Source: Synechococcales cyanobacterium S06
GTDB taxonomy: Bacteria > Cyanobacteriota > Cyanobacteriia > Cyanobacteriales > JAABRE01
DNA: 64,000 bases
Direction of reading: 5' to 3'
NCBI GenBank assembly: GCA_011391125.1
Contig: JAABRE010000015.1
Location: 3,700-67,699 of the forward strand
Shown: piece by piece, positions 9,374-52,442 of the stretch
Layout of the letters: every line of letters begins with the position of its first letter
Numbering within the stretch: position 1 is the stretch's first letter
Translations under genes and position numbers: made by a program
The notes under the pieces: generated by a model
Databases searched by the model: none
The model's input: only the letters and a program-made list of their open reading frames with translations
Told to the model about the DNA's origin: nothing

Positions 9374-9583
9374 GGTAGGGTGGGTAAAACGGCGAAAAAT
9401 TAAAATAAAAAACTTTGATTTATTATCCGTTTTGCCCACCAAGAATAGGTGGGCAAAACGGCAAATTATGTGTTTAATAATCATTGATTTATTATCCGTT
9501 CTGCACGGCAAGAATAGGTGGGCAATGGTGAAAATAATTGAAAATTTATTCCCTTAATTAATCCCACCATTACCCACCCTACC
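9374..9583. repeat. composite inverted-repeat element with internal tandem hairpin units
   Basis: Perfect 14-bp termini GGTAGGGTGGGTAA (9374-9387) and TTACCCACCCTACC (9570-9583). Inside are two copies of about 60 bp. The first forms a perfect 14-bp stem: CCGTTTTGCCCACC (9427-9440), 7-nt loop, GGTGGGCAAAACGG (9448-9461). The element lies between convergent gene ends. Confidence 0.8.
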
Positions 9584-9589
9584 AATTGA

Positions 9590-11869
9590 TTAAAGTGATC
9601 GCCACAATTTCGCAGTATTATTATTTAAAGTAGCAAAGGTCTGACCATCTGAACTAAAAGACATTACCCTTACTTCTTCGTTAATACTGTGTAATTCTTC
9701 TCCTGTGGGAATGTACCAAAATTTAACGGTTTTGTCTCCATAACTGCAGGCTAAAATTTTGCCTTCGGGATGAATGGCGATCGTGATAATATTACTTTTA
9801 TGGTCTGAAAATGTCCTGATTTCTTCTTTGGTATTAATGTCCCATTGTATAATTAAATATTCTTTTACTCCAAATAATGTTTTACTATCTGGACTAAAAA
9901 TCCGAGAATTACCTTGATTTATGTTAGGAAAATATTTATCCACTGATTCATTAAAAGATGCTAAAACTTCACTTAAGTTAATATCTTCAGTAAATTTTCC
10001 AGAATTAAAATCATAAGTTTGAGTACATAAACATGGGGAAGGTTTTTTAAACAAAGGCCTCAGATAAAATCCTTTAAATTGTACTACGAAATATTTATGA
10101 TCCGAAGAAATAGTTGTTTCGCGACTTCTTATTACACTCATATTAATGTTTATTGGTGAGCTAATTCCCAATTTTCTAATAACATTTAAACCCTCTAAAT
10201 ATGGAATAATAATTTCCTTGTCTATTTCTTCCTGAGATTTAGGAGGAATTTCCTCTACTTCTTCCTCAATTTCTAATTCCTCAATGATTACAGGTTCAGA
10301 AACATTGAAAGTAACTTTCATACTATCTTCATAACCAAGAATTGTTAAGAGTTGATTTAATTTATTGATATATTCCTGATCACTGAAAATTAAATTATCT
10401 TCAATCATTGACAAAAGGTCATTTATGCTCACATCGCTGGTTACTTCATTGTCTAAAAGGTAACGTTGTTTTAGCCATAATTTCAGGGAATTAATGACTT
10501 GGGATTTTGCCCAATCTGCTTGGGAAATTTGCGCTAAATTTAAGGCAAAATCTAACAGTAAATCTGGTAATAAAACGCCGTAAATTTCCGCTAAACTTTC
10601 ATATAATTGGTCATAATAAACCTTAACAGATTCCATAATTTCCGTTAGTAAATCACCTTCCTTAATCTCCTTAATTAAATCAGGGATAAAAGTTGGTAAT
10701 AAAGGAGTTAATTGATATTCGCGAATAAAATATTCATCAGCAACCAAACCAGTAAAAATACTGTGATAAATGATCAGAAATTGTGCCAAATTTTCGTAAT
10801 CTTTTTTATTAACAAGATAAGTTAAATTAACCGTATTAATCCCAGCTAATTTAAACTTTTCCGCCTTCTTTAAAGTCGCTAAATTCTGTACATTATCACC
10901 ACCATAAACCAGATCAACGTCTGCGGGAGTTTCCCCTAATTCTATTAATTGATTTCTCGTTTTTTCCCATTCTAAAGCTCTTTCCTTAGCGGAATTAAAC
11001 AGTATTTCTTGATAGGATAAACGGGAAATAATCGGCCGATAATTATAATTTGCACCATTTTTAAACCATTGGGCAATCCTGAAATTGAGATAATCGCCAT
11101 CTATTTCTGATTCTAAAACCAAAGTTGGCTCAGTTTTTAACACACTAAATAAAGACTTGATACTGGCCTCACTGTGAAAAGATTTACTCGTCCACGCACC
11201 CGCTAAAAAGTCAATTTGTTGCTCATAAGTGGTATAATTTTGTAAAAATTGCCTTAAACCTTCCGCAATAGTTAACTCCAAATTTGGTAAATTATCATGG
11301 GGATTATTTTTATTTTGTAAACTTTCAAACTGCAATTTTGGCGGCGCAAAAAAGATGCGTAAAGGAGTAATTTTGCTCGGATTAGTATTAGTAATAATGT
11401 CAGAAGTTACCAACCAAATAGGAGAATTGTCTAATTTTTTCTGCTCCTCTAAAACCTTTAAAGAAGTTTGTCTTTGATAACTTAAAACCTGAGTTTGTAA
11501 CCTGTGATTTAATTCTAAAACCTGTAATTGTAGAGCTTTTTCCTCTTGAAAACGCCATTTTTCAAAATCTAATTTTTTCTCTAACCTAGCATTTTCAGCA
11601 GATTGAATATAATGTTGAATTTCCTTAGCTTTCTCGTGATTTACTTGTGCTAACTGAGATTGTAACTTAATATTATCTTGATGTTGCAAATATTGTAACT
11701 TCATTTGAGCAATTTGTAAATCTTCATAATCATCAGCCACATCCTCATTTTGACTTCTCATATCAAACGCCGTACTAGCAACATGAACTATTGCTCCAGC
11801 AGGACCACCAATAAAAGATTTAGCAGAATTAACAATCGCCTTACCAATACCACCAATCATATCCCACAT
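9590..11869 (-). CDS. orphan multidomain protein: Gly-rich N-terminus, coiled coil, unknown central region, acidic linker, partial WD40 C-terminus
   Basis: 759-aa uninterrupted ORF. The C-terminus carries WD-like blades (GDKTVKFWYIPTGEE, NNTAKLWRSL). The N-terminus is GGIGKAIVNSAKSFIGGPAGAIV, followed by a Q/L/E/K-rich heptad-like stretch. Confidence 0.75.
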   Translation of the reverse strand: MWDMIGGIGKAIVNSAKSFIGGPAGAIVHVASTAFDMRSQNEDVADDYEDLQIAQMKLQYLQHQDNIKLQSQLAQVNHEKAKEIQHYIQSAENARLEKKLDFEKWRFQEEKALQLQVLELNHRLQTQVLSYQRQTSLKVLEEQKKLDNSPIWLVTSDIITNTNPSKITPLRIFFAPPKLQFESLQNKNNPHDNLPNLELTIAEGLRQFLQNYTTYEQQIDFLAGAWTSKSFHSEASIKSLFSVLKTEPTLVLESEIDGDYLNFRIAQWFKNGANYNYRPIISRLSYQEILFNSAKERALEWEKTRNQLIELGETPADVDLVYGGDNVQNLATLKKAEKFKLAGINTVNLTYLVNKKDYENLAQFLIIYHSIFTGLVADEYFIREYQLTPLLPTFIPDLIKEIKEGDLLTEIMESVKVYYDQLYESLAEIYGVLLPDLLLDFALNLAQISQADWAKSQVINSLKLWLKQRYLLDNEVTSDVSINDLLSMIEDNLIFSDQEYINKLNQLLTILGYEDSMKVTFNVSEPVIIEELEIEEEVEEIPPKSQEEIDKEIIIPYLEGLNVIRKLGISSPININMSVIRSRETTISSDHKYFVVQFKGFYLRPLFKKPSPCLCTQTYDFNSGKFTEDINLSEVLASFNESVDKYFPNINQGNSRIFSPDSKTLFGVKEYLIIQWDINTKEEIRTFSDHKSNIITIAIHPEGKILACSYGDKTVKFWYIPTGEELHSINEEVRVMSFSSDGQTFATLNNNTAKLWRSL

Positions 11870-11968
11870 AAAAATTAGGCCCTTTTTATTAAAATTAAAT
11901 ATTTAATATTTAATGATTGATTATACACTGTTAATTATATTTAAGCGCTAAAATATTTATTAAGCAAC

Positions 11969-12086
11969 TTTGCGTGAGACAAAACCCCTGGCCTATGATA
12001 CCAACAGAAAACCCCCTTAGCGCCTTTGCGTCTTTGCGTGAGACAAAACCCCTGGCCTATGATACCAACAGAAAACCCCCTTAGCG
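11969..12086. repeat. two direct copies of a 54-bp unit (11969-12022 and 12033-12086) joined by CTTTGCG-type short repeats
   Basis: Direct reading. The related CTTTGCG run recurs at about 49722-49750. Confidence 0.8.
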
Positions 12087-12230
12087 TGAGACACCAACCC
12101 AGGCTTATATGAAAAAAATCAATAAACATAATTATAATTTATCCCCTTACAATTGGAGATTAATTAAGTAGAAATAGATTGGGGTTAGAAAGCGGATTTT
12201 TTAAAAAAATCCGCTTTCTGGATGTTATAT

Positions 12231-52368: not shown

Positions 52369-52442
52369 GGCGAGCGTGGCCAAGTGGTTAAGGCAGAGGT
52401 TTGTGGTACCTCCATGCGTGGGTTCAAGTCCCATCGTTCGCC
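52369..52442 (+). tRNA. tRNA-His (anticodon GUG) with encoded G-1
   Basis: Hand-folded cloverleaf. G-1 pairs with C73. The acceptor is GCGAGCG/CGTTCGC (one G-U). The anticodon stem is GAGGT/ACCTC with loop TTGTGGT. The T arm is GTGGG-TTCAAGT-CCCAT. CCA is not encoded. A T-run follows. Confidence 0.85.

Follow-up and report, generated by a model that had tools for sequence, protein, structure and literature searches.

A largely cyanobacterial protein family with an undescribed N-terminal module, and a member whose WD40 propeller has lost three blades

Introduction

The question that we address here is raised by a single gene of Synechococcales cyanobacterium S06. It lies on the minus strand of a 64,000-nucleotide stretch of contig JAABRE010000015.1 (positions 3,700 to 67,699, in the following called the window) and encodes a protein of 759 residues that ends in too few WD40 blades for an ordinary propeller. 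A first-pass annotation, made from the letters alone, had described the protein as an orphan with a Gly-zipper-like N-terminus, a coiled coil, a core without recognizable motif and an incomplete propeller. It had also considered that the tail could be the truncated remnant of a seven-blade array in a decaying gene. What kind of protein is this, and is its partial propeller a working part or a leftover? Judged from sequence comparisons, the gene belongs to a large, unnamed and almost exclusively cyanobacterial family that is defined by a front module of about 520 residues. Its tail can be traced to a seven-blade array that has lost blades internally and in frame, and the three canonical blades that are left show purifying selection.

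The open reading frame (ORF) of 2280 nt is uninterrupted from its ATG to the stop codon. The predicted start matches that of the homologues, whose N-termini read M-x-x-K-x-x-x-GIGK, and an identical protein (P0001) is present in a public protein collection. Neither a paralogue of the gene nor a second WD40 gene was found in the 64-kb window. The sequence features that the first-pass annotation had listed (the ORF itself, the N-terminus, the helical segment, the linker, the WD40 tail and the flanking repeats) are all real, and their coordinates are collected in Table 1.

A family defined by its N-terminal core

A search with residues 1-640 identified 95 homologues with 31-78% identity, all of them from cyanobacteria or cyanobacterial metagenome bins. 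A profile of the core (A3), built from the window core and seven natural core-only members, was then run against 1.84 billion representative proteins and matched 628 of them with E <= 1e-3, including 323 with E <= 1e-30. Family size is accordingly given as at least 628 clusters at 50% identity. In a scan of one genome per species, 62 loci were found, nearly all in Cyanobacteriota and distributed over Oscillatoriales, Nostocales, Microcystis, Pseudanabaena, Aphanothece, Gomphosphaeria and others. Most hosts are filamentous or colonial. With this distribution, the 95 homologues and the 628 family representatives, the protein can no longer be called an orphan.

Some family members reside on contigs binned outside Cyanobacteriota, namely in a Thiotrichaceae metagenome-assembled genome (MAG; L047), a Pseudomonadota MAG (L057) and an 'Obscuribacterales' bin (L024 and L044). 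Either horizontal transfer or binning error could be responsible. The protein of L057, which has 826 residues, sits after a biotin-synthase-like radical-SAM gene.

Annotations in the source databases follow the C-terminal tails of the proteins ('tetratricopeptide repeat protein', 'WD40 repeat protein', 'SUMF1/EgtB/PvdO family') or read 'hypothetical', and members that consist of the core only have no Pfam domain at all. The front part is therefore an undescribed domain family. Literature searches returned no description of a 520-residue N-terminal module of this kind. The window protein is a regular member of the family. It aligns over its entire length (100% coverage) with its closest full-length relatives, the 907-residue proteins P0004-6, at 55-57% overall identity, and is 31-52% identical to the rest of the family. 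It retains 89 of the 97 columns that are conserved at 90% or more, and all 15 residues that are invariant.

Residues 1-640 of the window protein matched no Pfam, NCBIfam or PADLOC model, even at E <= 1, and scans of the entire protein with these models recognized WD40 only. At the same threshold, no NTPase was recognized by Pfam or NCBIfam and none of the anti-phage defence families of PADLOC-DB v2 matched the protein (0 families). A Walker A pattern is absent from the sequence, and the Pfam scan revealed no dynamin-type GTPase domain. STAND NTPases carry a P-loop NTPase, with Walker A (GxxxxGK[ST]) and Walker B motifs, N-terminal to C-terminal WD40 or tetratricopeptide (TPR) repeats. Of these traits the family has the C-terminal superstructure-forming repeats (WD40 in the window protein; WD40, TPR or FGE-sulfatase in relatives). 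Tested for the defining domains of the kinase, caspase, STAND, vWA and dynamin families, the window protein has none of them and stands outside all five.

The modules that follow the core vary from member to member. We found the core joined to a seven-blade WD40 array, to a 14-blade array (P0102), to TPR plus WD40, to TPR alone, to TPR plus FGE-sulfatase, to TPR plus a CobW GTPase (P0168), and to an MMR_HSR1-like GTPase (P0220, L055). At L050:7851-11678, in a Microcystis aeruginosa MAG, the core precedes a complete bacterial dynamin-like protein (BDLP), comprising Dynamin_N and the bacterial dynamin helical domain PF21808 (E 2e-57); P0197 is a further direct fusion of this type. Other members (P0064, P0073, P0075, P0090 and P0094) end without any C-terminal module, and in L008, L011, L014 and L021 paralogues that differ in their tails stand in tandem. 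Among the hints at a function of the family, we rate the fusions to a dynamin-like protein and to other GTPases highest. A constant N-terminal module with a variable C-terminal repeat or lectin-like module is also the arrangement of cyanobacterial kinases, of orthocaspases and of conflict systems of multicellular bacteria (PMC7159879), in which FGE-sulfatase (FGS) domains are invariably C-terminal to their partner domains (PMC7159879).

Origin of the partial propeller

WD40 similarity in the window protein is restricted to residues ~650-759, with the match to PF00400 at residues 682-718 (E 3.1e-10, 40.6 bits, cut-off 27). A hidden Markov model (HMM) of the WD repeat, built from regular cyanobacterial arrays, recognized three canonical blades (residues 657-685, 690-726 and 731-757), and alignment to relatives revealed an additional divergent blade at residues ~583-630. 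The repeats of 2ymu can be aligned with the three C-terminal blades from end to end (E 4e-55, summed over repeats), and 6R5Y was a direct sequence match of the tail in the PDB search. The chain stops at the natural end of the array, with ...AKLWRSL where P0004-6 have ...AKLWRSI. The earlier count of three to four WD-like blades running to the last residue thus proved accurate.

Closed WD40 rings normally have six to eight blades per chain, typically seven. The blades of the window protein are too few to close a ring within a single chain, and because each chain provides only three canonical blades and a divergent one, a monomeric closed seven-blade ring is impossible.

The relatives P0004-6 have about 140 additional residues inside the tail. 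In P0005 and P0004 we counted five canonical blades with two divergent blades ahead of them, seven in total, compared with three canonical blades and one divergent blade ahead, four in total, in the window protein. As the alignments indicate, an in-frame internal deletion took blades 2-4 of an ancestral seven-blade array, which accounts for the incomplete propeller that had been noticed before. The deletion junction, ...NES[VM]DKYFPN[IK]N[QK]G[NK]S..., is found both in the window copy and in L001, a contig that comes from another, independent metagenome and has a core 78-80% identical to that of the window copy. The same junction in L001 therefore shows that the deletion is no assembly artefact and that it predates the split between the two. 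All seven blades are kept in a third close lineage, L002/L003, which was seen in two samples. A search with the tail by itself returned just these two relatives and the four-blade form was found in only two lineages; it is therefore rare. The C-terminal end is complete and coincides with the natural C-terminus of the family, and truncation of the gene by the repeats downstream was therefore rejected.

Selection on the core and the blades

Over the three canonical blades, comparison of the window copy with L001 gave a dN/dS of 0.23 (Nd 32, Sd 26; chi-square test against neutrality, p = 1.8e-6). By parsimony, all of this divergence accumulated in the four-blade state. Values for the core were 0.19-0.26. 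Lineage-specific changes in the core, counted with the intact L066 as outgroup, amounted to 28 in the window copy versus 31 in L002, i.e., there was no difference in rate.

Since the canonical blades are under purifying selection, a decaying gene is not a simple answer. The idea of a truncated remnant was right about the origin of the tail in a seven-blade array, but the loss was an internal, in-frame deletion and not a truncation, and the canonical blades that remain are selected. From these comparisons we take the tail to be a reduced and derived module, with canonical blades that probably have some role now or had one until very recently.

Predicted fold and conserved residues of the core

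A confident AlphaFold2 (AF2) model of residues 1-530, built with the 95-sequence alignment, reached a mean pLDDT of 81 and a pTM of 0.83. It contains helices at residues 2-19 and 25-37, long helices over residues 42-143, an alpha/beta unit with strands at residues 170-175, 219-223, 249-257, 260-268 and 276-285, and a helical bundle at residues 286-510. Fifteen residues are invariant in the 95 sequences (E198, Y212, G224, W226, P248, L250, L252, E253, N262, W268, W301, G312, N329, D378 and P389). Many more columns are conserved at 90% or more, including those of a GAWxSKxFHSEAS loop, an acidic LESExDGDYLNFR beta-hairpin and a YHC...D motif. Most of the invariant polar residues (E198, E253, N262) are carried, together with this loop and this hairpin, by the alpha/beta domain (residues 165-285).

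Foldseek searches with the core model against 350,542 PDB chains and BFVD returned nothing at E <= 1e-3, no P-loop relative above noise and no similarity to the stalk or paddle regions of dynamins. The top match was YjjX/VC0702 (E 5e-3, TM-score 0.34, rmsd 14 A). We dropped this candidate because a model of the alpha/beta domain by itself gave a weaker match (E 0.08-0.14, TM-score ~0.2). An hmmsearch of PDB sequences with the core profile gave no match, and phmmer with the window protein found only WD40 proteins in the PDB. Within solved and viral structures (PDB, BFVD), the predicted fold of the core is thus without known relative. The first-pass annotation had seen no catalytic or NTPase motif in the central part and could name no family for the architecture, and neither profile nor fold searches have placed this region in a characterized family.

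N-terminus and helical segment

The first 35 residues of the window protein are rich in small residues, as had been stated (15 are G, A or S), and residues 2-19 have a hydrophobic moment of 0.51. In order to compare N-termini across the family, we evaluated the Kyte-Doolittle (KD) hydropathy of the first 60 residues in 231 members. Transmembrane-like values (KD >= 1.6) were found in 41 and values of 1.3-1.6 in 42 more, so that 83 of the 231 have a hydrophobic N-terminal segment (KD >= 1.3). A short N-terminal segment of amphipathic or hydrophobic character, with charged helices after it, is a recurring trait of the family. It suggests membrane association of the N-terminus, and a membrane-active role is plausible in this sense.

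The proposed glycine zipper found no support. The GGPAG stretch contains a three-residue insertion that is found in the window copy alone, relatives carry GDP-ISQ or PSS-IAS at this position, and the N-terminal alignment with relatives showed no conserved small-xxx-small run of the form (G/A/S)xxxGxxxG. What is conserved is amphipathicity or hydrophobicity.

Residues 40-145 consist to 54% of Q, L, E and K, contain neither proline nor glycine, and are predicted to be helical. The segment varies in length across the family, with insertions in relatives. Where a coiled coil of about 130 residues had been described, there is indeed a helical segment rich in Q, L, E and K, but its length is about 105 residues. 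The acidic linker that had been noted between core and tail is PVIIEELEIEEEVEEIPP, at residues 526-543.

Table 1. Features of the gene and of the adjoining intergenic DNA (coordinates refer to the window; aa, amino acid residues)
Feature	Position	Strand	Evidence
Complete ORF, 759 aa	9590..11869	-	P0001 identical
aa 1-37, N-terminal amphipathic helices rich in small residues (GIGKAIVNSAKSF...), putative membrane-association element	11759..11869	-	AF2 helices 2-19, 25-37
aa 40-145, Q/L/E/K-rich helical, coiled-coil-like segment, length varies in family	11435..11752	-	Composition; AF2
aa 165-285, conserved alpha/beta domain, 5 strands	11015..11377	-	AF2 strands; invariant columns
aa 286-515, conserved helical bundle with YHC...D378 motif	10325..11014	-	AF2 pLDDT mostly >90
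aa 521-582, acidic linker (EELEIEEEVEEIPP) and spacer; split site in sister copies	10124..10309	-	dN/dS 0.61
aa 583-654, divergent first blade (TTISSDHKYFVVQF...YDFNSG), then deletion junction at aa ~640-654	9908..10123	-	Alignments to P0004-6, L002
aa 655-759, three canonical WD40 blades (ancestral blades 5-7), natural C-terminus	9593..9907	-	PF00400, propeller models, PDB WD40 matches, WD-repeat HMM
Promoter-like -35/-10 (11963-11934, minus strand) and tandem repeat of 64-nt period (11968-12108)	11934..12108		Consensus promoter match not above shuffle expectation
Downstream intergenic repeats, outside the protein	9379..9516		3 copies of CCGTTTTGCCCACC motif, all local

Possible function and alternative explanations

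The reading that we favour, with a probability of about 0.5, is that the window protein is a membrane-associated scaffold or sensor with a reduced binding module. The core would be the constant working part, placed at the membrane by the N-terminal helix and probably self-associating through the helical segment, while the C-terminal module would be the variable part that binds partners or ligands. Action at the membrane, probably as an oligomer, is proposed because of the hydrophobic or amphipathic N-terminus, the variable length of the helical segment and the fusions to a dynamin-like GTPase that remodels membranes. As the three canonical blades are constrained, they probably still bind something. 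The binding part of the window copy would then be reduced and not dead, and possibly binds a second copy of the same protein. The existence of core-only members means that the core needs no tail, which would explain why the tail could be shortened here and detached in L001 and L002.

Several observations weigh against this reading. The best 19-residue KD mean in the N-terminus of the window copy is 1.1, below the transmembrane threshold, and the case for membrane association is drawn from hydropathy and from one type of fusion. AF2 folds the N-terminal helices against the core and predicts no extended coiled coil, which makes oligomerization a conjecture. No activity can be assigned to the core by homology (Pfam, NCBIfam, PADLOC, PDB and BFVD were all negative), and its many invariant acidic and polar residues could indicate an enzyme instead of a scaffold. 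Position 370 is Cys in 91 of the 95 sequences and Ser in the window copy, and at position 217 the window copy alone among close relatives has Gln in place of Arg. In the tail region, neither the acidic linker (dN/dS 0.61, indistinguishable from neutral) nor the first blade region (0.62, non-significant) shows clear constraint, and lineage-specific changes in the last three blades number 10 in the window copy versus 3 in L002 (p = 0.05; outgroup L066). Finally, the linker is the point at which two of the four close relatives are split. L001 has lost the fused frame through an insertion of 13 nt at codon ~518 and a nonsense change, GAA>TAA, at codon 531 (L001:7500-7800), and in L002/L003 a frameshifting deletion at the same linker has left ORFs of 517 and 339 residues that overlap by 70 nt (L002:1600-1680, L003:3175-3245).

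Many of these points would be expected if the gene were becoming a pseudogene, with the four-blade tail a dead leftover and at most the core still at work. Three of seven blades are gone, the shortened form is confined to two lineages, the linker and first blade evolve nearly neutrally (dN/dS ~0.6), the remaining blades are borderline faster, two near-invariant residues (C370, R217) are replaced, and the reading frame is interrupted both in L001, by insertion and nonsense codon, and in L002/L003, by a deletion seen in two independent samples. We nevertheless consider this outcome unlikely, although it deserves to be taken seriously. The 2280-nt ORF of the window copy is intact, its core (dN/dS 0.26) has not accelerated, and its canonical blades have diverged under constraint while already in the four-blade state. 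Furthermore, the separate WD40 ORF has stayed open and constrained in each of the two split relatives (tail dN/dS 0.19 between L001 and L002), as has the upstream half, which looks more like fission. The splits at this labile linker would be explained by gene fission at least as well as by pseudogenization, and independent splits at the same linker may represent recurrent fission and not decay.

The abundance of conserved polar residues brings up a different possibility, namely that the alpha/beta domain is an undescribed enzyme, e.g., a metal-dependent hydrolase or a nucleotide-binding domain, which the C-terminal modules target or regulate. Unusually many polar residues are invariant or nearly so (E198, K229, H232, E234, E253, E255, N262, R264, N329, H369, C370 and D378), they are concentrated on one beta-hairpin and an adjacent loop, and the top Foldseek matches, weak as they are, are nucleotide-binding folds (YjjX, KaiC, Hsp70 NBD). 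However, all of these matches are insignificant (E >= 5e-3, TM-score <= 0.34, rmsd > 11 A) and weaker with the domain alone, and the core has neither a known catalytic motif nor a P-loop. An enzyme therefore seems quite improbable to us. A single-gene conflict system (anti-phage or abortive-infection), in which the C-terminal repeats would sense an invader and the N-terminal helix and coiled coil would damage the membrane, appears doubtful as well, if less so. WD40, TPR and FGS modules are typical variable modules of conflict systems of multicellular cyanobacteria (PMC7159879; PMC10907252). Tandem paralogues differ in their tails, close relatives differ in genomic location, the N-terminus resembles an amphipathic peptide, and defence-like genes occasionally lie nearby (GmrSD in L049, NERD/PD-(D/E)XK-like genes in L003). 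Yet there are zero PADLOC matches, no NTPase switch or known effector, and no apparent defence island among neighbours that are mostly housekeeping genes; the composition gives no sign of foreign DNA (GC3 of 0.24, inside the neighbours' range), core-only members have no sensor, and the N-terminal helix of the window copy is short and below transmembrane hydropathy.

Lastly, the partial propeller may be completed by homo-oligomerization, for example if the N-terminal helices keep two chains together as a dimer in which the four-blade tails form an eight-blade ring. There is an engineered precedent, as four-blade fragments of two cyanobacterial WD40 proteins, WRAP and PkwA, dimerize and the WRAP dimer is an eight-blade propeller (PDB 6R5Y; PMC6805158). 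That very structure is among the sequence matches of the tail, the remaining canonical blades are under purifying selection, and a helical, possibly dimerizing segment lies upstream of the tail. The blades of the precedent were identical, though, whereas those of the window protein are not and the first of them is nearly neutral; the blade adjacent to the junction lacks the usual Asp and has a one-residue deletion; and the form occurs in two lineages only, in one of which the tail is detached from the core. We keep propeller completion as a live minority hypothesis that is compatible with the scaffold or sensor reading and, by this analysis, quite unlikely. A more far-reaching proposal is a natural half-propeller, maintained by selection, that forms an eight-blade ring across a dimer clasped by the N-terminal helices and is joined to a structurally new, membrane-associated domain, which cyanobacteria would also have fused to dynamin-like GTPases, TPR and lectin-like sensors. 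Such a protein would found a class of its own among sensors or remodelling proteins linked to membranes. We regard this proposal as very improbable.

Comparison with known systems

In its general layout, the window protein resembles the modular proteins of cyanobacteria, such as PkwA-type Ser/Thr kinases, orthocaspases and STAND/VMAP components (PMC7159879, PMC8283722). Like these, the family has an N-terminal working module with interchangeable C-terminal repeat or lectin-like modules, an FGE-sulfatase module that is always C-terminal, filamentous or colonial hosts, and several paralogues per genome. In contrast to these proteins, its N-terminal module is no kinase, caspase, TIR, vWA or P-loop NTPase, and none of the models and structures searched gave a match to it. 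Bacterial dynamin-like proteins (PF00350 plus PF21808) are linked to the family by the fusions in L050 and P0197, and both are rich in helices and probably membrane-associated, but the window protein has no GTPase domain.

With regard to the tail, the three C-terminal blades align with the seven-bladed WRAP (PDB 2YMU) and PkwA (5YZV) propellers, and close relatives have the full seven blades, unlike the window chain with its three canonical blades and one divergent blade. The engineered four-blade fragments (PDB 6R5Y; PMC6805158) share blade number and WD40 lineage with it. They differ in having been designed with identical blades, whereas the tail of the window protein is natural, has non-identical blades and arose by deletion. 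In summary of these likenesses, an undescribed N-terminal module and an unusual natural derivative, the four-blade tail, are combined in a familiar type of architecture.

WD40, TPR, FGE-sulfatase and dynamin-like GTPase modules, as found behind the core, are hallmarks of signalling and conflict systems. If the core were named and characterized, a gap in what is known of the cell biology or immunity of cyanobacteria would be closed. With the window copy and L001 there is a natural case of in-frame loss of three propeller blades with purifying selection on the canonical blades that remain. Such a case is informative about blade gain and loss in propellers, and about the viability of sub-propeller fragments in nature. 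To our knowledge, such viability has so far been shown with engineered fragments only. The window locus by itself is of modest interest, being a single stand-alone gene among housekeeping genes.

Genomic context and flanking DNA

The gene is flanked on one side by a site-2-protease-like gene and on the other by a small conserved gene, which is followed by cobK; ftsW/rodA-type, SLH, sugar-nucleotide and SSB genes are found in the wider neighbourhood. The housekeeping genes around the homologue differ between L001, L002 and L066, so that four close relatives occupy four contexts. GC content (0.318) and GC3 (0.241) of the gene are inside the range of its neighbours, and a foreign origin of the DNA was rejected on these grounds. 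When 765 ORFs from 65 loci were clustered, no family-wide partner gene emerged, the sole family-wide cluster being the family itself, and neither MoxR/vWA nor another conserved partner was found among the neighbours at these loci. The earlier statement that the gene stands alone is in line with this result. The gene is apparently monocistronic and its position not conserved.

Three recurrent upstream clusters consist of sub-clade-specific His-rich proteins, some with a sub-threshold beta-flower match. In sub-clades with TPR plus FGE-sulfatase or with the core only, the immediately upstream gene on the same strand encodes a protein of ~230 residues. Its N-terminal half is rich in His, Pro and Gln, and its C-terminal region matches the 5-fold beta-flower domain below threshold (PF21785, E down to 5e-8). 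This arrangement was seen at L022:6892-7596, L023, L024, L025, L028:496-1197, L029:7011-7691 and L065:1369-2079. Loci of the Microcystis type have instead a His-rich protein of ~212 residues with a charged helical C-terminus. Other upstream genes of similar size are unrelated (TerC, DEP, response regulator), and genes farther upstream are housekeeping or sporadic (transglutaminase, GmrSD, MurD, aldehyde dehydrogenase, BioB). Upstream of the P0003 copy, at L003:2-1392, two tandem genes for proteins of ~200 residues have weak matches to PD-(D/E)XK/NERD nucleases and DUF8196, a possible neighbourhood of defence type in that lineage only.

Both intergenic regions contain the elements that had been described, a repeat-filled spacer of 360 bp upstream and a hairpin downstream. 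In the upstream spacer, a 55-nt repeat recurs perfectly at a spacing of 64 nt (11968-12086), and a third copy, degenerate and partial, extends to position 12108. The same spacer has a perfect hairpin of 16 bp (12187-12219), by its looks the terminator of the upstream gene. The 55-nt repeat gives rise to a spurious ORF of 62 codons (11941-12129) and has no copies elsewhere in the window. In the downstream spacer of 247 bp there are two 69-nt direct repeats, 77% identical (9379-9516), with a 19-nt hairpin (9422-9466). Each of these repeats ends in GGTGGGYAAAACGG/CCGTTTTGCCCACC arms, which form the hairpin, and a flanking GGTAGGGTGGGTAA...TTACCCACCCTACC pair resembles the terminal inverted repeats of a small MITE-like element. 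The downstream repeats are possibly a terminator or a small repeat element; as a mobile element, neither type of repeat found support, both being only local within the window.

At the start of the window, positions 1-2000 have a GC content of 0.49, compared with 0.37 for the window as a whole; an Rfam search found no rRNA there. The sole RNA gene found in the window is a tRNA gene at 52370-52442.

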